A stretch of DNA of 39,086 nucleotides. It comes from Thermotogaceae bacterium. GTDB taxonomy: Bacteria > Thermotogota > Thermotogae > B21-G9 > HyVt-16. The stretch covers positions 1 to 39,086 of the forward strand of contig DQYP01000172.1 of assembly GCA_011043375.1 (NCBI GenBank), in the 5' to 3' direction. The translations under genes were made by a program, and so were the position numbers. Below the pieces are notes generated by a model. It was not told where the DNA came from. It did not search any database and saw nothing but the letters and a program-made list of their open reading frames with translations. Of this stretch, positions 228 to 39,002 are shown in pieces; position 1 is the first letter of the stretch, and every line of letters starts with the position of its first letter.

Positions 228-3200
228 TTGGCTGTTGTAAGCCAGGAAGTTAACATAAATATAGTTGCTCAGGATAGGGCTTCTGCTATACTCCAACAAG
301 TTAAAATGCAGCTCGAAGATCTTCAGAGAGCTGCACAAAGTGCTTCTATAGGCTTTGGTAACATGACCACGGCTACTTCTCGTGTTTCCTCAAGGCTTCA
401 AACCGTTCAGAGAACATTTAGAACACTTGGGACTACCCTTAGAACTGTAGGCGATGCTGCCAAAACTCTTGGAAATGCTTTTATTGCAACACCACTTTAT
501 GCTTTCTCTCGTTCTGTAAGTTATCTCAACCAGCAACTTCTCAACATGCAGAGAAGTTTCATTACATTGCAATACGCCACGGAAGGTTTCTTGCGAACAA
601 TGATGATGGGGTTAGTGGGAGTGGCTGGTGGCGTATTTGGTTTAGCGGCCAACTATCAAAGATCCGCCGACGCCATTGCACTTGCTTCTACCATGACAGA
701 AGTGAGATTAGAAAAAGTTAGAGATATGGCTTTTGAAGTGGCCACAACCGTTGGAAAGCCAGTTGAAGAGGTAGCCAATGCCATATATATGATTGGTTCT
801 GCAGGGATAAGATCGCAAGCGGAAATAGAGAGAGCCTTGAAGGCAACCGCCGCCGCTGCTGTTGCAGGCGGCTCTGACATGCAGCAAACATTTCAGACCG
901 CGATAGGAATGGTTAATGCCTTTAAGGATATGGGATACACTTTGCAAGATGTTTATGCAAAAATGTTTAAAGCGATGAAGCAGGGATTGCTGACTTTTGA
1001 AGATATGGCAACCTATTTTGGTGTTATAACGCCAGCTGCAAACCAGTTAGGTGCTTCACTTGATGAAGCCTTGGGCGCGTTTGCCGCTTTGACTAAAATG
1101 GGATTGCTTCCCGCGAGGGCTGCTACGGCCACTCAAATGGCATTTCAGGATATTTTTGAAAAAGCTGATAAATTAAAAGAGTTAGGAATAAACATTTATG
1201 ATGCTCAAGGAAGATTCAGGGGCTTATATAGCGTTATAAAAGACCTTGCAGATAAAATGGCTGGCATGACCGACGAAGGGAAACGTGCGGTTCTGGAGAC
1301 GATAGGTTTCGAAGTAAGGGCAACAAGGGCTATAATAAACTGGATAAATCGTGTCGATGAGTTAAAAGCGATGATAGAAGATGTTGGGAGCGCTTCTGCA
1401 GAAGCCGCCGAGGACGAAGAAGACGCCTTTGTGAAAGCAGGGCAATCTGTTGCTATGACTTTTAGGCGTATTCAGCAGGAGATTCAAAGAATAATAGACT
1501 CGTTAATGCCTACATTTAATCACATTTTGCTTAGAACGCTACCAATTATTCAAAATTTAGGAAAGTGGGCCGAAAAAAATCTCGAAGGCATTTTTGATAA
1601 CTTGCTGAATATAGGAAAAGCACTGTTGCCCATCGTTATTCCTTTAAAAGTTGCCTCAGTTTTTGCTGGTGACCTCTTCCAAATGTTTTACACACTTATA
1701 CACATCATAAATCCATTTAACATCGTAATGGGCGGAATGTTGTTTGCACTATATCAATACCTTTCTGAAAACAAAGAAATACTGGACGATTTAATTGACA
1801 AAGCACGTGAAGTAATTGACAAAATCAAAGTGAGTTTCATAGAACCTATTATCACAGCGGCAAGAAAAGGAGATTTTGTAAAAGTATTTGACATTATAAT
1901 AGGCGGTCTTGCAGAATTGATCGGGAAGGCCATTGTAAAAGTTGCTGAATACCTTAAAGAACACGGTAAGGAAATATGGAAAGCGTTTACAGGTGCCGCT
2001 GGTGAAATTGGCGGTGGTGTGGTAGAAGCAGTATTAGAAGTGACAGGATTTAAGCCTAGTGAAGATATGAAAGGCGACGATGCTTTTGTTAAGAAACTTA
2101 AAGAAGCGTTAGGAGTGGCTGTAATAACAGGTGTTACCACAGGGCGCTTGGGTTTGGCTGTCAAAATTGCGTCTTTGTTTTGGTTAAATGATGTCAAAAA
2201 AGGTGACCTTAAAATGACTGAGCGTCTCAAGATTGCATTTGGGGATATGCTTGCCACTGCTATTTTATCAGAAGGCAAGCCTATACCTTTTGCAGCTATT
2301 TTGACGTTCAAATCTGTGAAAGATACCTTAGAGAATGGTTGGAGTTTAAGAGATGTGATACGAAATGTTATTATTGCCGCTTTTGTGGGAGCCGGCTTGG
2401 GATTGGCTACCAAAAGTCCACAAATAGGCGCCTTGGCGTTTTCGGTGACACTTTATATCATTTCAGAGTTTTTCCCTGGCGACCCAATGAAGCGAGTAAA
2501 AGAATTAAAAGAACGTCTTGCTGAAATAAGTTCAAGGGTTTTTGAAAAGGGTATTCCTGCTCCCGAAACTGCTATGGTTTATAAACAACAAGTGATGAGA
2601 GAATTAGGAAGTATTGCCACATTATTAGGAAACGTTGATCTCTCCAAAGTGAAAAACATTCAATATTTTTCAGAATCCTTAAAACAGTTTAACGACACAT
2701 TTGCAACACTTTCAAAGAATGTAGATAGATTATCTGTTGCTGAATTTCAAAGTCTTGTGAATCAACTCTTGAAGTTATTACAACAGATGATTACTGCGTA
2801 TGAATTTCCAGCCAAACTCGAAGAAATGGGAAAAGAAAATTGGTTTACTAATTTCCTTGGGTGGTTGAACGAGTTATACAAACGTACAGGAAGCCCAGCT
2901 ACACAACCTTTTAATCCTCTTTATACAGGTGGAGGCCATCAAGCTGGTGGTTACACGGCCGATATTGGCGTTAACAAAATTGCTGGTGTTGTTCATGGCG
3001 GAGAATGGGTAGCGCCTGCTTGGATGGTAAAACATCCACTCTACGGCGCTCTAATAGCTTGGCTGGAGCAAAAGAGAATTAGAGGATTTCAAGGCGGTGG
3101 TTCTGATAAACCGATTACCACAAGGCCGCTGGATATAGAAGGCACAATCAAAAGAGCATTTGAGTTAGGCAAAGTCCTCAGTTCGTTAGGAAATGTATTT

Positions 3201-4835
3201 GAAGATACAAGTAAGACTATTGAGGAGTTTTCTATTGACAGGTTAAGAAATTTGTTTAGAGAGTGGACTAAAGCCGAAAGAGGTGCGCCTTTACCACCTC
3301 CAAGAACTGGTTACACACCCGCTGGTATCATCTTACCTTCTGTTGAAGAATACAACGAATTGGTAAAGACGTTGTTAAAATATAGCGATATACTTTCTAA
3401 AGTAATTGCAAACGAAAACGAGCGTTTAGTTATTTCTGCGAAATTAGCAGTTGACAAAAACATTGAGACTTTAAAGGAACTGGCTGAGTTGTTAAAACAA
3501 AGCGCAACCAGCGGAAAGGATGCGGTAAGCGCCTTTAATAGAATTGCTGATGCTCTGCAGTTAAGTGCCAAAGCTCAACCCATTGCAGAAGATCTGGCAC
3601 GTTATTTTGACTTCAAAGGATTATATGAAAGCATGCAGATGTTTGCACCTGTTTCTGCAAAAATGGTAGATGTTAATAAATTGATGACTATGAGTCTCTC
3701 GGACTTCGTTGATGTGTTGCTGGAGACAACTTATGAGACAGGCAAGGTTGATAGCAGCGTGTTGAAGCTTTACAACGACTTTGTGGACTATAGAAATATT
3801 CTAGGTGATGTTATAGACGAAGAGAAGGAAAGATTAGTGACGGTTACAAAATGGAGTCAGCACCTGAAAGAGTTTGGGAAAGCAGGAAAGAATATGGCAA
3901 ATACACTTTACAATTGGACGAAAGACTCTAAAGAGTTACAAGCGGTAGTTGAAACCAATTTGACGGATTTTGATAAATTCAAAACCCTATTGGGCGGGGT
4001 AGCTGGGCTGTTTAGACCAGAAATGCTCGCGGTAGCGGCTGGAGGGGTTGGCATTCCAATAGCTGCGGGCTTAGGTGGCGCTTTAGGTATTGAAGCCGCA
4101 AAAGGCAACATAGGAGGGGTGCAGAGTTTCATAGGCGCAATTGGAGATGCTCTGATGGGTTTGATGGTTTCACTTATCCAGGTATTTGGGCCGTTAATAA
4201 TGCAATTAGAAAATGTGCAAGCGGTATTGTTCCCATTCCAGACGATTTTGCAGGCTATATGGGATGTATTGGGGCCGGTAATAAACCAGGCATTTGCTCC
4301 TTTGGCGACGATGTTAAAAATCATTGGAACGGTTATTGGTAATTTGCTATTGCCTGTTTTGCAGCCGTTACTAAGCGTATTTCAATTATTAGCAAACGTA
4401 ATGGCCATGGCATATAATATGATGTTGCCCGGGATTAGAATACTGTACATCTTAGCGTCGATGGTGGGAAATGTATTCAAAATGATTTATAACGCCTTTG
4501 CGAGTTTCTTTAACTGGTTGGCAGATCAGATAAATAATCTTCTAGGGTGGGCAGGAATTCATATTGGTCACATGAAGCTCAAGAAAGTCAAATCCTTAGA
4601 CGAAATAATGAAAGAGGCTGAACAGAAATTCAAACCGATTTCCGCAGAAGGATTAACTGGAATAGCGATGCAAACACAAGCTCAGTATACAGCAAATGTT
4701 TCTAGAACTGGTCCCGAAACTGTGAATATCTACTTCCAGAATTCTATAATATACGGCAACGAAGAGGTGTTCAAAGAACAGGTGCTTAAATGGGTGAAAG
4801 AATGGGTTAGTGAAGGAGTAGTTGGGATTGGATGA
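228..4835 (+). CDS. tail tape measure protein (TP901-type core)
   Basis: 1535-aa ORF with TTG start at 228 preceded by GAGGTG (215-220). The region around aa 140-380 (ALASTMTE..IGSAGI..FAALTKMGL..) resembles the TP901-family tape-measure core as I recall it. It has a long helical middle and Gly-rich/hydrophobic C-terminal segments. Confidence 0.9.
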   Translation: MAVVSQEVNINIVAQDRASAILQQVKMQLEDLQRAAQSASIGFGNMTTATSRVSSRLQTVQRTFRTLGTTLRTVGDAAKTLGNAFIATPLYAFSRSVSYLNQQLLNMQRSFITLQYATEGFLRTMMMGLVGVAGGVFGLAANYQRSADAIALASTMTEVRLEKVRDMAFEVATTVGKPVEEVANAIYMIGSAGIRSQAEIERALKATAAAAVAGGSDMQQTFQTAIGMVNAFKDMGYTLQDVYAKMFKAMKQGLLTFEDMATYFGVITPAANQLGASLDEALGAFAALTKMGLLPARAATATQMAFQDIFEKADKLKELGINIYDAQGRFRGLYSVIKDLADKMAGMTDEGKRAVLETIGFEVRATRAIINWINRVDELKAMIEDVGSASAEAAEDEEDAFVKAGQSVAMTFRRIQQEIQRIIDSLMPTFNHILLRTLPIIQNLGKWAEKNLEGIFDNLLNIGKALLPIVIPLKVASVFAGDLFQMFYTLIHIINPFNIVMGGMLFALYQYLSENKEILDDLIDKAREVIDKIKVSFIEPIITAARKGDFVKVFDIIIGGLAELIGKAIVKVAEYLKEHGKEIWKAFTGAAGEIGGGVVEAVLEVTGFKPSEDMKGDDAFVKKLKEALGVAVITGVTTGRLGLAVKIASLFWLNDVKKGDLKMTERLKIAFGDMLATAILSEGKPIPFAAILTFKSVKDTLENGWSLRDVIRNVIIAAFVGAGLGLATKSPQIGALAFSVTLYIISEFFPGDPMKRVKELKERLAEISSRVFEKGIPAPETAMVYKQQVMRELGSIATLLGNVDLSKVKNIQYFSESLKQFNDTFATLSKNVDRLSVAEFQSLVNQLLKLLQQMITAYEFPAKLEEMGKENWFTNFLGWLNELYKRTGSPATQPFNPLYTGGGHQAGGYTADIGVNKIAGVVHGGEWVAPAWMVKHPLYGALIAWLEQKRIRGFQGGGSDKPITTRPLDIEGTIKRAFELGKVLSSLGNVFEDTSKTIEEFSIDRLRNLFREWTKAERGAPLPPPRTGYTPAGIILPSVEEYNELVKTLLKYSDILSKVIANENERLVISAKLAVDKNIETLKELAELLKQSATSGKDAVSAFNRIADALQLSAKAQPIAEDLARYFDFKGLYESMQMFAPVSAKMVDVNKLMTMSLSDFVDVLLETTYETGKVDSSVLKLYNDFVDYRNILGDVIDEEKERLVTVTKWSQHLKEFGKAGKNMANTLYNWTKDSKELQAVVETNLTDFDKFKTLLGGVAGLFRPEMLAVAAGGVGIPIAAGLGGALGIEAAKGNIGGVQSFIGAIGDALMGLMVSLIQVFGPLIMQLENVQAVLFPFQTILQAIWDVLGPVINQAFAPLATMLKIIGTVIGNLLLPVLQPLLSVFQLLANVMAMAYNMMLPGIRILYILASMVGNVFKMIYNAFASFFNWLADQINNLLGWAGIHIGHMKLKKVKSLDEIMKEAEQKFKPISAEGLTGIAMQTQAQYTANVSRTGPETVNIYFQNSIIYGNEEVFKEQVLKWVKEWVSEGVVGIG

Positions 4836-21299: not shown

Positions 21300-21327
21300 T
21301 TGAATCGTAACATGAAATCAGTATAAT
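21300..21327 (+). promoter_or_regulatory. sigma70-type promoter for the rightward early operon
   Basis: TTGAAT (21300-21305), a 16-nt spacer, then TATAAT (21322-21327), about 50 nt upstream of the 21377 gene. Confidence 0.55.
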
Positions 21328-21376: not shown

Positions 21377-21604
21377 ATGCGCAAAAAGCGATTTTTGAAT
21401 ATTTTACGTAAACTAATGGATAAGGGATTAGTTAAAGTCGAAAACGTAGTAGATCATAAAGGACAACTTGAACGCATATATAGGTCGATAGCAGAAGATG
21501 AAGTAATAATCATGATCAGCGTTATTGGTGAGGATGGCGTAAAAAGTGTATATCGCAATGAAAACGCGCTCCAGCGTTTATGGAGCGCTTTACGTTTATG
21601 GTGA
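21377..21604 (+). CDS. small protein, possible winged-helix DNA-binding protein
   Basis: RBS GAGGAGGGG. The segment LNILRKLMDKGLVKVE resembles a wHTH recognition region. Weak call. Confidence 0.45.
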   Translation: MRKKRFLNILRKLMDKGLVKVENVVDHKGQLERIYRSIAEDEVIIMISVIGEDGVKSVYRNENALQRLWSALRLW

Positions 21605-21631
21605 ACAAAAACGTAAAGGGAGGTGTTTGGC

Positions 21632-22945
21632 ATGATTCGTATTGAAGTGGAGCGTGCAGCAGTAGAGGTGTTAAAAGAGTATTGGGATACGAATTTTACA
21701 GAAGACGTAGAAAGAATCCTTGAGGAAGAATACTATATTAGTGTAACCAACATTATCAACACAATTGAAAAACCCGATATAATTGACGGCAAAGTGGTGT
21801 TGCGTGCATTAAACTCAGACTACGTGCCCATAGCAGTAGATCCAAAATATTTTGGAGGCGTATATTACGTCGGAGACAATAATAACTTGGTTCCTATCTA
21901 TCCACGTTACCATACAGACAGCGACTACGGCCACGTTCTTGACGTAGACGTAGCAGAATACGTAGGAATAGAGTTTGAAGTTGGAACGCGCTTGCAGCAT
22001 ATTATGCTCAGAGATGTATTAAAACACACCTCATATTATGATGCGTCAGTTGAAGCAGAGTTTAAAATTCCACTTTCACCCTACACAAAGCAGCAAATCG
22101 AAGCAATTTACTGGTTTAAACGTTTTAAAGGTTTTAAACGTGATTTTCCAGTTTCTACCCATCTTCACGTTTCTTGGTGGTGGCTATATATGGCCACCGC
22201 AAAGCAATACAAAGAACGTGTTAAGACGCCTGATGCACCAGAGGAGTATTTTGGCAGAAGTTATAACAGTTACTGTAATGAAGGCGTTTCACGTTCTCAT
22301 TATGCGACATTTCATTTGGGAGTATATGACGTCAGCAGTGATAGAGCGGAGCATCCAGCGTGGATTGATACATTCGAATTTCGATTACCTGCGGCGCAGA
22401 ATTTGCAGCAATTACGCAATTCGATACTCTGGATATACATGGCAGGAATAGATGCATTACGCGATTTGCACTTAACTCGCGATTATAAATATTGGCTGCA
22501 GCGCCCTGAGTTCATTATAGCACTCAGCCGCAAGATACGTAAAGAGTTGCTGATTGATGATATTGTATTGATTTCTGCAGTTGACTATTATGACTACCTT
22601 GGGCATATTGGAGCAGAAGATATGTATGTTGATGAGATTGACGTATTTGGCAAGAGTATATATCACTGGATAAATTACGAAGTAATTTACCGCTTTGATG
22701 GTAAAGATGCAGCACCTCGCATATATTACGGTGATATCGATGAAGAAGTAGAAAAAGGTGTGTATTACGGTGAATATTATTACATTGGCATTGACCGCAA
22801 AGAGCTTAAATACCGTGAAAAACGGTTGAGACGCTGGGAGAATGATATATTCTCATGGTTGGGAGTTGATATGAAAGAAGTTTATCGCATAGAAAAAGAG
22901 TTAAGTGGTAAATCACGCATAAAACTTTTGAGGGAGGTGGCTTGA
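21632..22945 (+). CDS. amidoligase (glutamine synthetase-like fold, Amidoligase_2 / GCS2-related)
   Basis: ATG 21632 lies 8 nt after GGGAGG. The ordered motifs are VGIEFEVG, DASVEAEFKIP, STHLHVSW and IDTFEFRLP. They match the E-x-E / E / H-x-H / E-F-R pattern of phage amidoligases as I recall it. Confidence 0.6.
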   Translation: MIRIEVERAAVEVLKEYWDTNFTEDVERILEEEYYISVTNIINTIEKPDIIDGKVVLRALNSDYVPIAVDPKYFGGVYYVGDNNNLVPIYPRYHTDSDYGHVLDVDVAEYVGIEFEVGTRLQHIMLRDVLKHTSYYDASVEAEFKIPLSPYTKQQIEAIYWFKRFKGFKRDFPVSTHLHVSWWWLYMATAKQYKERVKTPDAPEEYFGRSYNSYCNEGVSRSHYATFHLGVYDVSSDRAEHPAWIDTFEFRLPAAQNLQQLRNSILWIYMAGIDALRDLHLTRDYKYWLQRPEFIIALSRKIRKELLIDDIVLISAVDYYDYLGHIGAEDMYVDEIDVFGKSIYHWINYEVIYRFDGKDAAPRIYYGDIDEEVEKGVYYGEYYYIGIDRKELKYREKRLRRWENDIFSWLGVDMKEVYRIEKELSGKSRIKLLREVA

Positions 22946-22947
22946 GT

Positions 22948-23763
22948 ATGTGTAGGTTAGCCGCGTGGAGTAAGCTTAAACCGCAAAGCGAGGATCTTAT
23001 GTGGCTCCAAGCATCTAACGGTGGTGACGGGGATGGTTTCATTTACGTAACTGGAGATCTTGACGTAAAAGCCGAAAATGCAAAGGAAAATGCTATAGAA
23101 TACGTAGACGGGCTTACAATAGCAAGGTTTATGCCCTCCACCCAAAAAACAGCTTATAAATCAAAAAAGTCAGGTATAGTAGAATACTTTACATGGCCTG
23201 AGGAGATAGAATATATACAATTACCGCAGAGTGCATTTTATCACACAAGAATAAGGTCAAGCGGAGCTTACGGCATAATGCACACCCACCCTGCTATAAG
23301 TGGAAATATATTAGTTATGCAAAATGGCACCGAACGCGTTTTTGAGATAGAAGGCATGGCAGACTTTCAAGGCGTAGCATACTTGATAAATATTGGATAC
23401 ATAAAACCCGAAGCTTTGAAGTTTCTCACGCATTCGAATTGGTTTATAGTAAATACCGCAACCCATAAATTCTGGATAATAAGCGCAAAAAGCTTTGATC
23501 CGCTTTGGATGCACGAATTAAGTGATGAAGAATGGATTATAGCAAGCGAAGCAATTAGAGATGAAATGCGTGAATTCCTTGGAGTTATCAAAGGGCGCAT
23601 AACAGAAGACATGACGTTCAAGATAGAGAATGCAGATATTACATACGTCGAGAAAAAGAACGTAGAAAAATACTATGGCTATTATGGATATAACTCAACG
23701 GTGAATAATTCGAATTATACGAAATATTTATACGACGATTATCAAGCATGGGAAAGCTTTTAA
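22948..23763 (+). CDS. class II (Ntn, Cys2) glutamine amidotransferase, YafJ-like
   Basis: ATG 22948 lies 7 nt after GGGAGGTGG and gives an N-terminal MC (Cys2 nucleophile). Other motifs are GGDGDGF, HTRIRSSGAYGIMHTHPA and MQNGT. The 5' end is tightly coupled to the amidoligase gene. Confidence 0.6.
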   Translation: MCRLAAWSKLKPQSEDLMWLQASNGGDGDGFIYVTGDLDVKAENAKENAIEYVDGLTIARFMPSTQKTAYKSKKSGIVEYFTWPEEIEYIQLPQSAFYHTRIRSSGAYGIMHTHPAISGNILVMQNGTERVFEIEGMADFQGVAYLINIGYIKPEALKFLTHSNWFIVNTATHKFWIISAKSFDPLWMHELSDEEWIIASEAIRDEMREFLGVIKGRITEDMTFKIENADITYVEKKNVEKYYGYYGYNSTVNNSNYTKYLYDDYQAWESF

Positions 23764-23783
23764 CTTAAAGGGAGGTGAAGAGT

Positions 23784-24044
23784 ATGTTTTACGTAGCAAG
23801 TAAAGAAGTTTTAAAGAGAGTTAATGGAGTATATCATATCACAACCGTAAGTAGCCAAAAACTACTTCAAAAACTGCAAAAAGATAAATGGCGTGTAATT
23901 GATGGAAAAGTGCCAAGTCTTATAGTAAATAACATACCCGAAATAGTTTGGAGCAAAAGACGCGTCAAAAAGTTAAACTACCCACTTTATGTGGTCTTAG
24001 ATGATGAGAATATTTTACTCTTGAGGCATAAAAAAGGGTGGTGA
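23784..24044 (+). CDS. hypothetical protein
   Basis: ATG lies 6 nt after AGGGAGGTG. Confidence 0.6.
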   Translation: MFYVASKEVLKRVNGVYHITTVSSQKLLQKLQKDKWRVIDGKVPSLIVNNIPEIVWSKRRVKKLNYPLYVVLDDENILLLRHKKGW

Positions 24045-24050
24045 AAAACG

Positions 24051-24314
24051 ATGAGCATAGAAAAAGTTTTTGATGATGGAATACTTGCAGTTTATAAAGA
24101 TAAGCGATATGGCATATTTTACTTTTACCCTGCGGGTGAAGATCCCCGCGGGGATTGTCTCGGATACCATGAAGTGTTAGAGCTTGCGCAAAATGAAGCA
24201 AAACGCAAGGAATACTTAAAGTGGCTTGAGCTTGACGCCTCACGTAATAATACATGGTCAACTCTATTTTACGCAATGAGTATAACTTCAAAGGGAGGTG
24301 AGTTTAATGAGTAA
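24051..24314 (+). CDS. hypothetical protein
   Basis: ORF in the operon, preceded by GGGTGGTGA. Confidence 0.55.
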   Translation: MSIEKVFDDGILAVYKDKRYGIFYFYPAGEDPRGDCLGYHEVLELAQNEAKRKEYLKWLELDASRNNTWSTLFYAMSITSKGGEFNE

Positions 24315-24594
24315 AGAAAGGCTGATCGAAAAACTTGAGGTAGTTTATGATGAACTGAGTGAGAACACACAGGAAGTTATAGAAAACGCTTTAGAAGTCT
24401 TAAAGATTATAAACTTAACACACGGCGGGACTGCAGGTTATATAATAACCGTAGCAACTGGTGGCCCGCATATCGAAATCAATACGCGCGATGGACTCAT
24501 TCAAGGATGGTGGGGAGCAGATTATGCGGATATTAGCATTCCATGGCATTTGGTGGAGGAAATAGAAAATGCATTAAGTGAGGTGATCGCGTGA
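24307..24594 (+). CDS. hypothetical protein
   Basis: ATG 24307 lies 8 nt after GGGAGG. Confidence 0.55.
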   Translation: MSKERLIEKLEVVYDELSENTQEVIENALEVLKIINLTHGGTAGYIITVATGGPHIEINTRDGLIQGWWGADYADISIPWHLVEEIENALSEVIA

Positions 24595-24803
24595 TGTATA
24601 TCAATACCGAGATAATACGTCAAGAACGTTTAAAGAAAATTATCGATACTTTGCGCATAATAAGAGATGTTATATCAGATATAGCAATCGATGATGGATG
24701 GCTCGTGATACGTTTAAAACACGGTTCGATAATGAAAACGCAAAATTATTGGCTTGATGCAGAAGACGCAGAATGGTTAAAATACATGATCAAGGAAACT
24801 TGA
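24594..24803 (+). CDS. hypothetical protein (paralogue of 25199..25405); a GTG at 24591 is an alternative start
   Basis: GTGATG overlaps the upstream stop. The pattern ..IIDTLRIIRDVISD..VIRLKHG.. is similar to the 25199 product. Confidence 0.55.
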   Translation: MYINTEIIRQERLKKIIDTLRIIRDVISDIAIDDGWLVIRLKHGSIMKTQNYWLDAEDAEWLKYMIKET

Positions 24804-24831: not shown

Positions 24832-24856
24832 GCGGGGCACTCAAGCCCCGCTTTTT
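24832..24856 (+). terminator. rho-independent terminator of the rightward early operon
   Basis: GCGGGGC-actcaa-GCCCCGC followed by TTTTT. Confidence 0.8.
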
Positions 24857-28185: not shown

Positions 28186-29520
28186 TCACCTCCCAAACTT
28201 TTTATACCATATTTCTTGAGAATTGTCAAGATACTTTTCAATCCTTCTTAAAAGGTCAGCTACTCTCCCCCCTAAAGAAGGAGAGCTTGCTCTACCGGTT
28301 TGACCGGGAGCATTAGGCTGGCTGACAAGCAGCCCCTTTAGATTCTCTTCTTGGGTTTTTGAAAGCTCACGAAGTGCGATATTGATCGCTCCAACTATAT
28401 CTGCATGCTCTTTGTAACCACAGTTCTGACAAACAAATCTTTCTCCATGGTTGGGTCTGTTGTTTTTTGAAACGTACCCGCACACAGGACATGTTTGAGA
28501 GGTATAGCTTGGATCTACATATACAGCTTGAACTCCGTAGTATAAAGCTGCTTTGTATTCGATCTTCTTCTGGAGCGATGCAAAAGGCCATTGCTCAGCT
28601 TGCCGTCTTGCTTCTTTATCTTTGCCGCGATACGTAACGCGGTTGGAGCGAATCTGAGTCAGGTCTTCCAAGACAAACCTAGCCTGAGGATGGGATTCAA
28701 CCAGGGTTTTTGAAACGATGTGTAGCACGTTCTCGGTAAACCGTTTTTCCCGCCTGCTAAGCTTCTGGAGTTTTCGCTTAGCAGAGCGGGTGCCTTTGGA
28801 CATTAGCTCAGAGCGCAGGTTGTGATAACGTTGTTTTCTGCGTTTGACTTCCTCAGGCAGATTGACAAGATATTTCTTTCCGGTTGTTGAAGCAACAGCC
28901 ATGATATGTCTTTCGCCAACATCGACTCCGACGATTTCTTTGGGACGCCGCTCTTGAATTTCAAGAGTTACAGGAACCAAGAGAAAGAATGTCTTAGAAG
29001 AGCGATCATAACTGAGGATAGGATCACCGATTTTCCCTTGTCGCAGGTACTCATAATGCTTATTCCAACCGTAGATTCGTATCCACTTTAGACGGCCTTG
29101 CAGAGTTGAAATGGAAACGTAGATTTCGTTCCAGTTGGCAAATTTGAAAGATACAGTTCTGTTGTACGTGTATTTGGCGATTAGAGACTTTCGCTTTGGA
29201 GGCTTATCCCAAAATTTCTTAGTAGCTTTCGAATCTGGCTTTCTGCGTTTCAACTCTTTGAACTGAGCCCAAAGGGTTTTGTAGATCGCAGCGGCGTCTC
29301 TGTTAACGTTCACAGCAAGTTGAGCAGGAAGACCAAATCGCTCTCTGATAGTCACATAATATGCATGGTGTAGTTTCTTCACATTAGTGGTCTTATCAGA
29401 CAGGTTTTTAGACAGCACAAAGTTTACGGCTTCTGTATACGCTTCAGCCGTCTCAAACAATTGCCTCTTTTGCTCTTTTGTGGCGTCAAACTTGAATTTA
29501 AGCATAAGCACCTGTTTCAT
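28186..29520 (-). CDS. tnpB: TnpB (IS200/IS605-family OrfB, RuvC-like RNA-guided nuclease)
   Basis: Typical N-terminus MLKFKFDATKEQKRQL. RuvC triad candidates are GVDVGE, FVLEDL and HADIVGAINIA. Zinc ribbon CPVCG..CQNCG. The tracked ORF starts at TTG 29526 and ATG 29520 is preferred. Confidence 0.85.
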   Translation of the reverse strand: MKQVLMLKFKFDATKEQKRQLFETAEAYTEAVNFVLSKNLSDKTTNVKKLHHAYYVTIRERFGLPAQLAVNVNRDAAAIYKTLWAQFKELKRRKPDSKATKKFWDKPPKRKSLIAKYTYNRTVSFKFANWNEIYVSISTLQGRLKWIRIYGWNKHYEYLRQGKIGDPILSYDRSSKTFFLLVPVTLEIQERRPKEIVGVDVGERHIMAVASTTGKKYLVNLPEEVKRRKQRYHNLRSELMSKGTRSAKRKLQKLSRREKRFTENVLHIVSKTLVESHPQARFVLEDLTQIRSNRVTYRGKDKEARRQAEQWPFASLQKKIEYKAALYYGVQAVYVDPSYTSQTCPVCGYVSKNNRPNHGERFVCQNCGYKEHADIVGAINIALRELSKTQEENLKGLLVSQPNAPGQTGRASSPSLGGRVADLLRRIEKYLDNSQEIWYKKFGR

Positions 29521-29522
29521 CT

Positions 29523-29792
29523 TCAATCACCACTATATGAGATTATATTCCAGATAAAGAGATAGCCCCAGTATCCTGTATATAGTGCTTTTAGGTAAGA
29601 GAAAACTGGAAAATTAAATATCATTTGCAGTCCTATTACGCCGAATGGAACTACTATGAATGTTATAAAAAGATCTTGTGCTATTATTGACCATATTGGT
29701 GTTTTTAAAATAGCATATTTCATAACCTGCAGAGTTATAATCATGCGCAGCGCTAATACTACCCAGAAAGCTATCCAGAGAACTATCATCAT
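29523..29792 (-). CDS. small integral membrane protein (about 3 TM)
   Basis: RBS GAGGAGGTGA. Hydrophobic throughout. The stop overlaps the tnpB start region. Confidence 0.6.
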   Translation of the reverse strand: MMIVLWIAFWVVLALRMIITLQVMKYAILKTPIWSIIAQDLFITFIVVPFGVIGLQMIFNFPVFSYLKALYTGYWGYLFIWNIISYSGD

Positions 29793-31413: not shown

Positions 31414-31447
31414 TGGTAGAATTCTGGTAGAATTACTTGGTAGAATT
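31414..31447. repeat. three tandem copies of TGGTAGAATT at the XRE-gene/methylase junction
   Basis: Copies start at 31414, 31425 and 31438. Confidence 0.75.
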
Positions 31448-32008
31448 TTCAAACAGCTTATCCAGCTCTTCTTTTAGCTCAGGTGGAAGTTGAACACAGC
31501 GAAAACTATCCGTTTGAAGTTCTTTGCCATCAAAATAAGCCTCTATAAACTGTTGCGTGGGATCATATTCTTGGGCCTTAGATTGGTCTATAAGAACTTT
31601 GCCATGGTATTTGTCTTTTAGCAACGCTTCTATGGTGGGTTTCATTTCGTAAGCAAAGTAATGAGTTTTGATTTTGATAACTTTCAGACCTTTATAGTCT
31701 TTAATATCGACGAATTCTGGATAATATTTCTGCTCAAATTCCAGTCTAGGTTGCAAACCCAATTTGCTAAATATTTTTGCAATTTCGCTTATTTTAAGGT
31801 CGTATTCGCCTTCTTCAATTGCTTGGTAGGTTTTCAAATCAATTTCAAGATATTTTGCCATATCTTCTTGCGTGAGATCATATCTTTTTCTATAAGCCAT
31901 CAATTGCCCGCCTATTTGTGCTTTAAGAGAGATGAGGTATTCGTATTCTAAAGACAATTTTGCTCCAAGATCACGCATAAGTTCGAAGACGTTTGAATAA
32001 ACCTTCAT
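31433..32008 (-). CDS. XRE-family helix-turn-helix protein with C-terminal extension
   Basis: The HTH_3-like segment is YRKRYDLTQEDMAKYLEIDLKTYQAIEEGE..ISEIAKIFSKLG. Confidence 0.7.
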   Translation of the reverse strand: MKVYSNVFELMRDLGAKLSLEYEYLISLKAQIGGQLMAYRKRYDLTQEDMAKYLEIDLKTYQAIEEGEYDLKISEIAKIFSKLGLQPRLEFEQKYYPEFVDIKDYKGLKVIKIKTHYFAYEMKPTIEALLKDKYHGKVLIDQSKAQEYDPTQQFIEAYFDGKELQTDSFRCVQLPPELKEELDKLFENSTK

Positions 32009-32630: not shown

Positions 32631-33182
32631 TTATTCTGTCTCATCTATACTTTTTAAAAGCTGTTCTGCGGCTTTTGTGTACGGTTTGTAATACCGTAAC
32701 GCTTTAGCAAGCTCGTTCACATCGACTATGATATATGAACCAGAATCTTTGTCATAGCAAACTCTTACATAGAAAGTCTTTGGCCAGAATGGGTATTTAA
32801 CTTTTTGACGACTTGTTATACCATTCACTTCTCCTGTAAAAGCAGTTCCAGATTCATCAACCCAAACTATGGCGTTGTTATAATAAACCGTATCTCCATC
32901 TTTAAAGAGAGCTGAACAGCGTCTGCTTTGATATTTGTTTTCGCCAATTTTCTCCCATTCTTCTTCACCTTGATAAATAGGGGCCAGAGGCATCTTCAAG
33001 AGGCGATTTTCAACCAACTTGGCTATTTTTGGTGCAAACCAGTGCGCAGTGAAACCAGAATGAAGCTGTTTATCAAAAATTGCTTTCATTCTTTCAATAA
33101 CTCCGATAAAGTCTTCATACACTTTCCACTCGTCTTCAGAAACATGCTTTTTAAGATATTCCCATTCCGTCACACCCAACAC
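32631..33182 (-). CDS. hypothetical protein (start TTG 33182 or GTG 33173)
   Basis: RBS GGGAGG immediately upstream. Confidence 0.55.
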   Translation of the reverse strand: MLGVTEWEYLKKHVSEDEWKVYEDFIGVIERMKAIFDKQLHSGFTAHWFAPKIAKLVENRLLKMPLAPIYQGEEEWEKIGENKYQSRRCSALFKDGDTVYYNNAIVWVDESGTAFTGEVNGITSRQKVKYPFWPKTFYVRVCYDKDSGSYIIVDVNELAKALRYYKPYTKAAEQLLKSIDETE

Positions 33183-37654: not shown

Positions 37655-38017
37655 TTATTTCCAAGATCGCTTTAATTTTTCCAACTCGATCGGTTTACCT
37701 TCAGGTAGTTTGCGAATAAGGGCTCGAATCGTATATTCGGTTATGTTGATGTTTTTAGTGAGCTCTTCAATCACCGCAAAATATTTTGGATAAACATTTT
37801 GAATTTCTACGCTTTCATAACACTTTGCAACATCTTCGGAAAATGGTAAGCCGTCACGTTTAATCCAAGTAACGTTCAAGAGCCTTTGATCGTTTTTCCA
37901 AGTCCATAACAGATCAGCCACAAACGCTTTCAACATATACTCCTCACGTGTTTTTGAAAGACGTTTTACCATTCCTAAAACTCGTTTTGTTTCGTCAAAT
38001 AGTCCTAAAAATCCCAT
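37655..38017 (-). CDS. hypothetical protein
   Basis: ORF overlapping the thyX 3' end by 13 nt. Confidence 0.55.
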   Translation of the reverse strand: MGFLGLFDETKRVLGMVKRLSKTREEYMLKAFVADLLWTWKNDQRLLNVTWIKRDGLPFSEDVAKCYESVEIQNVYPKYFAVIEELTKNINITEYTIRALIRKLPEGKPIELEKLKRSWK

Positions 38018-38655
38018 TTATACCATCCCCTCAACATTTCCCAAAGTTCCGGATGAATTTCATAAAGTTTTTCAAATAGTTCTATTGCAAATCTGCGAAA
38101 TTCACACAAAACGTTTTCTTTATGCCTGAGTTCAATGAGATGCCCCAATTCTCGAGCGTTTGTTGTTGCCACGAAAGCGGTTTTAAAGGCTTCTGGAAGT
38201 AAGTATTTCAAGACGTCATTGGGTAGTTCTTGGATATGGGATTTAATGTATTCTAACTGTTTTAAGTTCTGCTCTGTAATATTACGATAGTAAAGCTCAA
38301 AATAACGCTGAGGCACTTCGGGATCAGTGCAAGGAACAACCAACAGATCATCCAAGGCGTTTGTTTTTAAAAGTTTCTTCAGAGCAAATCTAGTAGACTG
38401 TACAGTTAAAGAAATATGCCTATGGCGCACGAATTCTTGCAAAAAAGCTCTTGAAACCCCTTCAACTTCGAATGTGTACACGAAATGCTCTAATACACTG
38501 TGATGCCCTTGCTCTATCACTAGATAAAGCAATTTTTTATCGTTAGGCCCCAACTTGTTTTCTTTGGAATCAAGCCTGCCCAAAGAAGCATGTGAAAAGC
38601 GTATAGCACGCATAACCGTCTCATATGGTGTGTAATGTGTTATGTTAATTTCCAT
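38005..38655 (-). CDS. thyX: FAD-dependent thymidylate synthase ThyX
   Basis: ThyX signature RHRHISLTVQSTRF (RHRxxSxxxxSxR) plus HHSVLEH. ATG 38655 lies about 10 nt after GGAGGA. Confidence 0.85.
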   Translation of the reverse strand: MEINITHYTPYETVMRAIRFSHASLGRLDSKENKLGPNDKKLLYLVIEQGHHSVLEHFVYTFEVEGVSRAFLQEFVRHRHISLTVQSTRFALKKLLKTNALDDLLVVPCTDPEVPQRYFELYYRNITEQNLKQLEYIKSHIQELPNDVLKYLLPEAFKTAFVATTNARELGHLIELRHKENVLCEFRRFAIELFEKLYEIHPELWEMLRGWYKWDF

Positions 38656-38660
38656 GTTTA

Positions 38661-39002
38661 TCATTCCTCCAGCCAGATTTTCCAAAATGCAACCTTGCCC
38701 TCTCTAGCTAACAATCTCACATATGCTTCATCCATAGAAGAAACGATCCTAGCGTGCGGAGCGACCGAACACAGAAGAAACACATTTGCTCTCGTTAAAA
38801 TTACTGGTCTTACACCCACTTCAACAGGCTCGCCCAGCAACGCTTCTATGATATTAGCGGTTCTTTGGTCGTTGAGAGCATTTATGTAGCCTGCTTTCAA
38901 TTCGAGTTTGAACTCTTCTGGGTTTAATTGGGCAAAGTTTACTTTGCAGCTCCGAAATGGAAGCATCCACGTGCTGAAACGATCAACAAGAATTCGCGTC
39001 AT
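38661..39002 (-). CDS. hypothetical protein (faint resemblance to DUF1874 / archaeal-virus B116-like proteins)
   Basis: ATG 39002 lies 8 nt after AAGGAGG. The segment NALNDQRTANIIEALLGEPVEV loosely recalls the DUF1874 core. Low certainty. Confidence 0.5.
   Translation of the reverse strand: MTRILVDRFSTWMLPFRSCKVNFAQLNPEEFKLELKAGYINALNDQRTANIIEALLGEPVEVGVRPVILTRANVFLLCSVAPHARIVSSMDEAYVRLLAREGKVAFWKIWLEE

Follow-up and report, generated by a model that had tools for sequence, protein, structure and literature searches.

The stretch of DNA analyzed here, called the window below, comprises positions 1 to 39,086 of contig DQYP01000172.1 (assembly GCA_011043375.1) and is essentially the whole of a metagenomic contig of 39,088 bp, which NCBI bins with a metagenome-assembled genome of a Thermotogaceae bacterium. 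The annotation of its open reading frames (ORFs) is that of a phage-like, more closely a siphovirus-like, contig. Two neighboring genes on the forward strand, referred to as gene 1 and gene 2, are the subject of this study. Sequence comparison places gene 1, as a highly divergent member, in the Amidoligase_2, or glutamine-synthetase (GS)-like carboxylate-amine ligase, superfamily and identifies gene 2 as a highly divergent, stand-alone domain of the class II, or N-terminal-nucleophile (Ntn), glutamine amidotransferase (GATase) type. The two genes and their motifs are located as follows.

21632..22945, forward strand: gene 1, divergent protein of the Amidoligase_2 superfamily (GS-like COOH-NH2 ligase), 437 amino acids
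21950..22435, forward strand: putative amidoligase catalytic core, amino acids 107-268 of gene 1, the region aligned by hhalign
Core motifs of gene 1: GIEFE 21965-21979, DASVEAEF 22040-22063, STHLHVSWWW 22154-22183, FGRSYNSY 22250-22273, TFEFRLP 22370-22390
22948..23763, forward strand: gene 2, divergent stand-alone class II (Ntn) GATase-like protein, 271 amino acids, locus tag ENF81_05890
22951..23550, forward strand: GATase motifs of gene 2, namely Cys2 22951-22953, GGDGDG 23020-23037, YHTR 23239-23250, THPA 23284-23295, MQNGTE 23317-23334, Asp139 23362-23364, ASE 23542-23550

Both ORFs lie as a preliminary description of this DNA had given them. Gene 1 starts at ATG 21632, 6 nucleotides (nt) after GGGAGGTG (21618-21625), and stops at TGA 22943-22945. 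Gene 2 starts at ATG 22948, 2 nt after the stop of gene 1 and 8 nt after another copy of GGGAGGTG (22932-22939), and its next codon is TGT, encoding Cys2. The longest ORF of gene 2 would begin at TTG 22942 and read MSMC.... The preliminary description had chosen ATG 22948, which places Cys directly after the initiator Met, and the homologues bear this choice out: the N-terminus MCRLAAWS is invariant in all of them, and each has ATG-TGT behind a strong Shine-Dalgarno sequence of its own. There is thus good support for the ATG/Cys2 start, with which removal of the initiator Met leaves the predicted catalytic Cys exposed.

The four amidoligase motifs first noticed in gene 1, GIEFE (amino acids 112-116), SVEAEF (139-144), HLHV (177-180) and FEFR (248-251), fall on invariant or near-invariant columns of a 30-sequence alignment, in which the gene 1 family is combined with intermediate sequences, Pfam-positive Amidoligase_2 proteins and annotated phage amidoligases (LUZ24 gp18, KBNP1711, CW02 gp9 and a mis-annotated protein of IME271). 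Nine residues are invariant across the 30 sequences, E114, E116, D137, H177, H179, G208, R209, E249 and R251, and all nine are kept in gene 1; S139, E143 and Y224 are near-invariant. Since the invariant residues are kept, the gene 1 protein is very probably catalytically competent.

The connection of gene 1 to the curated family runs through more distant relatives. When 1.84 billion representatives were searched exhaustively by HMMER with the gene 1 family profile, 29 proteins were returned at E <= 1e-3. Five of these (P0015, P0017, P0020, P0026 and P0028) pass the gathering score of the Amidoligase_2 model PF12224 and three more lie just below it, whereas the gene 1 protein and its close homologues do not reach this threshold (22 bits). 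By hhalign, the gene 1 family aligns with the Pfam-positive Amidoligase_2 proteins over 156 columns with a probability of 98.65% (E 4.8e-16). The motifs stand in register, GIEFE with SIEFE, DAS with DGS, STHLHVS with GTHIHVG, FGRSYNSY with WGRYFNxYA and TFEFRLP with TIEFRLP (gene 1 family and Pfam-positive proteins, respectively). Among the relatives, P0015, P0017, P0019-P0029 and P0031 are proteins of about 250 amino acids that join an N-terminal zinc-ribbon-like segment (CxxC...CxxC) to an Amidoligase_2 core, and P0020 additionally carries pentapeptide repeats.

In the family alignment of gene 2, the blocks MCRLAAWS, GGDGDG, FYHTR, THP and LVMQNGTE are invariant. The gathering threshold of GATase_6 (PF13522), 27 bits, is not reached: neither the gene 2 protein nor its homologue P0003 gives a match, and P0004, the best member of the family, is alone in giving a sub-threshold one (18.2 bits, E 0.0027), which falls on the correct motif block. 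The N-terminal domains of eight phage GATases served as a reference, including that of LUZ24 gp19, which matches GATase_6 at 4e-26 and matches GlmS structures by sequence. The gene 2 family aligns with this reference by hhalign over 103 columns (probability 86.5%, E 4.5e-6, score 45.9). In 200 column shuffles the score had a mean of 14.1, a standard deviation of 2.4 and a maximum of 20.7, as against the 45.9 observed, and the best E was 0.04; the reversed alignment gave E 0.38, and two unrelated alignments gave E 0.34 and 0.77. Again the motifs are in register with those of the reference: YHTR with HNR, THPA with AHPF, MQNGT with VHNGT, Asp139 with the aspartate of VDS, and ASE with ASE, so that R101, N126-G127, D139 and A199-S200-E201 occupy corresponding positions. 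The roles of such residues are known from GlmS and PurF, in which the Arg binds glutamine and the Asn-Gly provides the oxyanion function.

The window proteins carry the same conserved motif sets as PF12224 and PF13522, in the same order. Gene 2 shares with GlmS, PurF and AsnB the N-terminal Cys nucleophile and the HxR, HP, NG (oxyanion) and D motifs. In those enzymes, however, the acceptor domain is fused and does not have a GS-like fold, whereas the partner in the window is a separate GS-like ligase. The spacing from NG to Asp also differs, being 13 residues in gene 2 and about 25 in GlmS.

The two genes form a unit beyond the window. A word-indexed search of 5.8 billion proteins returned only its own fragment for gene 1, and for gene 2 it returned P0003 (40% identity) and P0004 (42% over half its length). 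The source of P0003 is a set of T7-like contigs, whose genes include those for a single-subunit RNA polymerase, a T7-type primase-helicase and a family A DNA polymerase; P0004 derives from L007, a contig binned to a Desulfurococcales archaeon. Directly upstream of every gene 2 homologue lies an ORF of 346-375 amino acids, which is a homologue of gene 1 at 24-26% identity (BLASTP, E 2e-14 and 4e-18). Homologues of both proteins are found at 24-42% identity in three lineages other than that of the window. A survey of their neighborhoods, which the preliminary description had proposed, gave the same outcome throughout: in four of the four known lineages, the window, the T7-like contigs and L007 among them, the two genes are neighbors on one strand with their order preserved, and they are never apart in any recovered locus. 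When all ORFs of the window, the T7-like contigs and L007 were compared with each other, the pair was the only common content except for one unrelated helix-turn-helix (HTH) protein, common to the window and L007. On these comparisons, the pair is a self-contained cassette that is passed between thermophile phages with unrelated backbones.

Wider searches added little. Megablast and tblastn searches of 50,697 phage records with the region, both proteins and one validated amidoligase found nothing, and scans of viral, metagenome and genome contig collections yielded, apart from a further T7-like contig and a fragment identical to the window, nothing. Two ORFs ranked as GATase-like in contigs L012 and L013 were rejected, as they are RNA-dependent RNA polymerase (RdRP)-like proteins. 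These two are IMG/VR contigs of 78-131 kb in which a remote amidoligase relative lies about 2.5 kb upstream of an RdRP-like (PF05183) protein (L012 3875-4828 and 7365-8648, L013 likewise); no GATase was found in the flank examined. On the pair-carrying contig L007, positions 2353-3837 are occupied by a Ro60/TROVE protein with a von Willebrand factor type A (vWA) domain and a Dam-type methylase. The window encodes at 31433-32008, on the reverse strand, an HTH_3 protein with an RnlB-antitoxin-like C-terminal part, whose HTH part is 36% identical (5e-19) to L007 1477-1770.

The known phage system that the pair resembles is the phiEco32/LUZ24-type cluster of an amidoligase with a class II glutamine amidotransferase (GAT-II), represented by LUZ24 gp16-gp22. 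Its reference GATase is present in 341 phage records. In LUZ24, KBNP1711, Cronobacter phage 009 (Csa009), Lyrsu03 and Vp_R1 the canonical order begins with a type 2 COOH-NH2 ligase, a protein of about 200 amino acids and the amidoligase, and continues with a large GATase, a small protein, a RimK-type ATP-grasp protein and usually a gamma-glutamyl cyclotransferase; CW02 and IME271 have most of these genes in another order. The LUZ24-type cluster and the window thus have in common an Amidoligase_2-type gene that is directly followed, on the same strand, by a class II GATase gene, and amidoligase precedes GATase in all five phages with the canonical order. Both pair families were compared by hhalign with eight canonical LUZ24-type cluster families. 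The gene 1 family matches only the gp18 amidoligase (E 2.5e-4) and the gene 2 family only the gp19 GATase (E 1.5e-5), while the other 14 comparisons gave E >= 0.086. In the reverse direction, canonical hidden Markov models (HMMs) were run against the window and related loci, 1,073 ORFs in all, a search whose sensitivity is that of HMMER-detectable similarity. The amidoligase and GATase models recover only homologues of the pair; the type 2 COOH-NH2 ligase (PF14395), gp17 and gamma-glutamyl cyclotransferase were not found among the 1,073 ORFs, and the RimK-type ATP-grasp and gp20 models gave matches there at noise level only (E >= 0.077).

The differences from the canonical cluster are equally clear. 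The canonical GATase has 437-587 amino acids as annotated, with a long C-terminal region, whereas that of the window stands alone with 271. The additional canonical genes, for the second ligase, the gp17- and gp20-like proteins, the ATP-grasp protein and the cyclotransferase, are not found with the pair, and the similarity of the pair to the LUZ24-type families is detectable by profile-profile comparison only. The first ~105 and the last ~130 residues of gene 1 match nothing. That these extensions, or the tail of gene 2, correspond to other proteins of the canonical cluster was considered and rejected, since no hhalign match was obtained for any of them. Two probable annotation errors were met among the canonical relatives. 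A protein of Vibrio phage IME271 annotated as an aminotransferase (L018 6832-7677) is an amidoligase homologue, and in Escherichia phage KBNP1711 (L023 4001-4135) the annotated GATase start lies 135 nt downstream of the conserved (M)CGIV N-terminus, and therefore the annotated protein lacks the catalytic Cys.

The view that a GS-like amidoligase and a Cys2 Ntn GAT-II constitute one module, advanced in the preliminary description, is thus supported by the profile-profile alignments, the shuffles, the specificity of the family comparisons and the strict co-occurrence of the genes. As judged from sequence, the module is a divergent minimal version of a known phage system, with both sequences beyond the reach of curated models.

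Iyer et al. (2009) are credited, in secondary citations, with the prediction of the amidoligase/GAT-II association. The function was still a prediction in papers through 2025 (PMC10580990, PMC11706807, PMC11318856, PMC10945688, PMC8989533), which mention possible roles in cell-wall modification or superinfection exclusion, secondary metabolites and nitrogen metabolism, and a co-association with thymidine hypermodification genes; a function as an enzyme of DNA hypermodification is a further suggestion made since 2009. The statement of the preliminary description that the association was predicted in 2009 and is experimentally undefined agrees with three of them (PMC10580990, PMC11706807, PMC8989533). 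In the literature found, neither a substrate nor an ATP-dependent carboxylate-amine ligase activity of the canonical phage members is reported. During directed evolution of a LUZ24-like phage, both evolved lines gained missense changes in the amidoligase as well as in the GATase next to it (PMC11450229), which agrees with a joint action of the two proteins in host interaction.

Taking these results together, we favor, with a probability of about 0.6, the reading that the pair is the minimal two-gene core of the phiEco32/LUZ24-type amidoligase/GAT-II cluster and that its products act as a heteromeric glutamine-dependent amidotransferase or amide ligase. By analogy, a two-subunit enzyme of this kind is the most likely mechanism. 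The Cys1 of the GAT-II subunit would hydrolyze the amide of glutamine, or a gamma-glutamyl amide, to release ammonia, or an amine. The amidoligase, with ATP and metal ions, would activate a carboxylate of the substrate as an acyl-phosphate and would then capture the released nitrogen nucleophile, forming an amide. Such logic would be analogous to that of MurT/GatD or of the fused class II amidotransferases. The fused enzymes are a model for the delivery of ammonia to an acceptor-activating partner. MurT and GatD are co-transcribed ligase-type (ATP-dependent) and glutaminase subunits, encoded by two genes, that amidate a carboxylate (PMC3267633). They are the closest functional analogy for the proposed mechanism. 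MurT, however, is of the Mur-ligase type and GatD is a class I (triad) amidotransferase, and neither is homologous to the window proteins.

From its genomic position, the pair may act in an accessory or early phase of infection, with a host or phage molecule as its target. A part in host takeover or counter-defense, raised in the preliminary description, is unproven. On the T7-like contigs, the RNA polymerase gene follows the pair at a distance of 2-3 kb, and the contig end is reached within 2-4 kb. In T7 itself, the region upstream of the RNA polymerase gene holds early genes. The early position is therefore better supported in the T7-like relatives than in the window.

Several observations weigh against the reading of the pair as one heteromeric enzyme. 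The profile search by hmmscan that the preliminary description had proposed came out negative for both window proteins, neither of which matched anything in Pfam (even at E <= 1), PHROGs, NCBIfam or PADLOC, and the link to the curated families needs the intermediate sequences. AlphaFold2 models built from three-sequence alignments reached a mean predicted local distance difference test (pLDDT) score of only 33.3 for gene 1 and 34.7 for gene 2, values at which no meaning attaches to the modeled folds. Among the sequences of the PDB, gene 1 has no relative even with the 30-sequence profile, and the sequence-profile search for gene 2 found nothing real; over both genes, the searches with three profiles gave chance matches to uL23m only. 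The GS/GCS-type and Ntn folds are those given in the literature for the matched families, and are assigned here by homology. The conserved Arg and Asp of gene 2 would fit a gamma-glutamyl-X substrate equally well, so that a glutaminase and a gamma-glutamyl amidase are not separated by them. Translational coupling, which had been claimed for the pair, is plausible in the window, where stop and start are 2 nt apart, and in the T7-like contigs, where they overlap as TAATG; in three lineages, the stop and start codons overlap or have 2 nt between them. An 85-nt spacer separates the genes of L007, where coupling is absent, and thus tight coupling is not universal. Finally, we know of no characterized enzyme in which a GS-fold ligase is coupled to ammonia delivery by a class II GAT, and for this reason the mechanism is an analogy and not a precedent.

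The main competing explanation, which is possible though rather doubtful, separates the two reactions in time. The amidoligase would link the gamma-carboxyl of glutamate to a metabolite or precursor that bears an amine; after an intervening step by host or phage, gene 2, as a gamma-glutamyl amidase, would hydrolyze the amide. Precedents for this scheme are EgtA/EgtC of ergothioneine synthesis and PuuA/PuuD, each of which combines a GS/GCS2-superfamily ligase with an amidotransferase-like hydrolase of gamma-glutamyl amides; EgtC, which begins MC..., is a class II GAT-like protein that stands alone. The scheme gains from the clustering of the canonical relatives with a RimK-type ATP-grasp protein and a gamma-glutamyl cyclotransferase, which points to gamma-glutamyl chemistry, and from Arg101 and Asp139 of gene 2, which would suit any substrate with a free glutamyl amino-acid end. 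Nevertheless, intermediate enzymes act in the Egt and Puu pathways and no such partners accompany the window pair; by HMM search, the ATP-grasp protein, the cyclotransferase and the second ligase are not found in the window or its close relatives. A ligase and a hydrolase of the same bond would be futile unless a further step intervened, and the strict pairing and the start/stop overlap fit a single heteromeric enzyme better. Alternatively, the similarities may be real without a joint enzyme, one or both proteins being inactive scaffold derivatives or the two acting independently on different substrates. The extreme divergence, the want of curated matches and the large lineage-specific N- and C-terminal regions of gene 1 speak for such a case, but it is improbable given that all nine superfamily-invariant residues are kept in gene 1, that Cys2, Arg, Asn-Gly, Asp and ASE of gene 2 are kept across lineages at only 24-42% identity, and that the two genes are not separated in any recovered locus.

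A further proposal concerns the tagging of proteins or peptides. Here the amidoligase would join the carboxylate of a peptide or small protein to a target amine, as PafA does with Pup, and the Ntn amidohydrolase, like Dop, would prepare the tag or take it off. A neighboring small protein with GGE near its C-terminus might be the tag. The three residues GGE occur within the last eight residues of five of the 1,021 ORFs in all loci retrieved, and all five ORFs lie in neighborhoods of the pair:

Window 24051-24314: small ORF ending KGGEFNE
L001 2216-2518: small ORF of a T7-like contig, ending QGGETE
L008 3570-3869: small ORF of a T7-like contig, ending QGGETQ
L009 1937-2233: small ORF of a T7-like contig, ending QGGEAK
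L001 383-1510: the T7-like homologue of gene 1 itself, ending KGGEM

In the three T7-like contigs the small ORF overlaps the end of the gene 2 homologue. The confinement of these tails to the neighborhoods of the pair would agree with tagging, as would the membership of PafA and Dop in the same carboxylate-amine ligase superfamily. Secondary citations also attribute peptide modification of proteins to Iyer et al. 2009. However, BLASTP finds no homology between the small proteins of the window and those of the T7-like contigs (nothing at E <= 100), the three T7-like copies, being near-identical, amount to one observation, and the GGE does not stand at the very C-terminus. The pattern was recognized only after the fact, with a chance occurrence estimated at about 1-5%. 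Moreover, the pocket of a class II GAT normally needs a free alpha-amino group, which the C-terminal residue of a protein does not have. Tagging is thus very unlikely as an account of the pair, and there is scarcely more to be said for its fuller form, a Pup-like conjugation system in which the ligase would attach an adjacent GGE small protein, or a peptide, to targets of the host or phage and the amidohydrolase would mature or remove it, all within a portable, early-expressed cassette of unrelated thermophile phages. A GGE tail as a general feature of the cluster was examined and rejected, as the conserved small protein of the gp20 family has no such tail. Among these explanations the heteromeric glutamine-dependent enzyme is still preferred.

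Gene 1 and gene 2 belong to a tightly spaced block of rightward ORFs (21377-24803), which is preceded on its 5′ side by a divergent intergenic region of 727 bp. The other features of the block and its borders are these.

21300..21327, forward strand: sigma-70-like promoter candidate, TTGAAT-16 nt-TATAAT, 50 nt upstream of the first ORF of the block
21377..21604, forward strand: 75-amino-acid ORF at the head of the block (from the ORF list), perhaps a small DNA-binding protein
21563..21618, forward strand: two overlapping hairpins, from the end of the 75-amino-acid ORF to the ribosome-binding site of gene 1
23784..24803, forward strand: four tightly packed small ORFs of 86, 87, 95 and 70 amino acids, the rest of the apparent operon
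24832..24851, forward strand: intrinsic-terminator-like hairpin of 7 G-C pairs followed by TTTTT (terminator scan)

The promoter candidate agrees with the consensus at 10 of 12 positions and is a pattern match only; the same consensus scan found 36 promoter-type sites in the region where 23.6 were expected. The earlier proposal that the pair is expressed from the first early promoter is unproven, as it rests on this one consensus-type match at 21300-21327. The tiny winged helix-turn-helix (wHTH) protein of the preliminary description, encoded by the 75-amino-acid ORF, is likewise unproven. Its matches to the wHTH families DnaD_N, TFIIE_alpha and TrmB are sub-threshold (E 0.03-0.08), there is no credible relative among PDB sequences, and the ORF is not conserved beside the pair in the other pair-carrying lineages. 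The two hairpins between this ORF and gene 1 correspond to the inverted repeats I23 (21563-21591) and I10 (21588-21618) and are mutually exclusive. The first resembles a weak intrinsic terminator, with a terminator-like site at 21566-21588 in the terminator scan, and the hairpins could serve in attenuation of read-through or of translation. The four small ORFs downstream of gene 2 have no significant family match and no BLASTP match in the other pair-carrying loci. The rightward block probably terminates at the hairpin at 24832..24851.

The divergent intergenic region contains, between 20587 and 20880, the 10-mer TTTCACAAAG / CTTTGTGAAA four times, in both orientations; the copies are possible operator sites, nearer the leftward genes. 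Elsewhere the window encodes a tape-measure protein (228-4835), a GemA-like protein, a DNA methylase, a TnpB-type transposase, ThyX, a Tad3-like protein and a tRNA-Arg. The Tad3-like protein, of 183 amino acids (32631-33182, reverse strand), matches the Pfam family Tad3, a type I Thoeris inhibitor, above the gathering score (E 8e-14), and is therefore a candidate anti-defense gene elsewhere on the element. The TnpB / Cas12f-like protein (28186-29526, reverse strand) has OrfB_IS605 and TNB domains and adjoins a stretch of low GC content (0.31, 26-28 kb), and the flavin-dependent thymidylate synthase ThyX (38005-38685, reverse strand; PF02511, E 1e-36) lies near the end of the contig.

By itself, the locus reveals no new kind of biology. 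Its meaning lies in the association of amidoligase and GAT-II, which is annotated in hundreds of phage genomes and, as the pair illustrates, reaches far beyond what curated models detect. The amidoligase and the GAT-II alone make up the portable, conserved core of the system, which in T7-like thermophile phages is located in the early region. Because the contigs are binned to Thermotogaceae and Desulfurococcales, the two-protein system is probably thermostable. The pair is a compact and practical starting point for structures and for finding the substrate.

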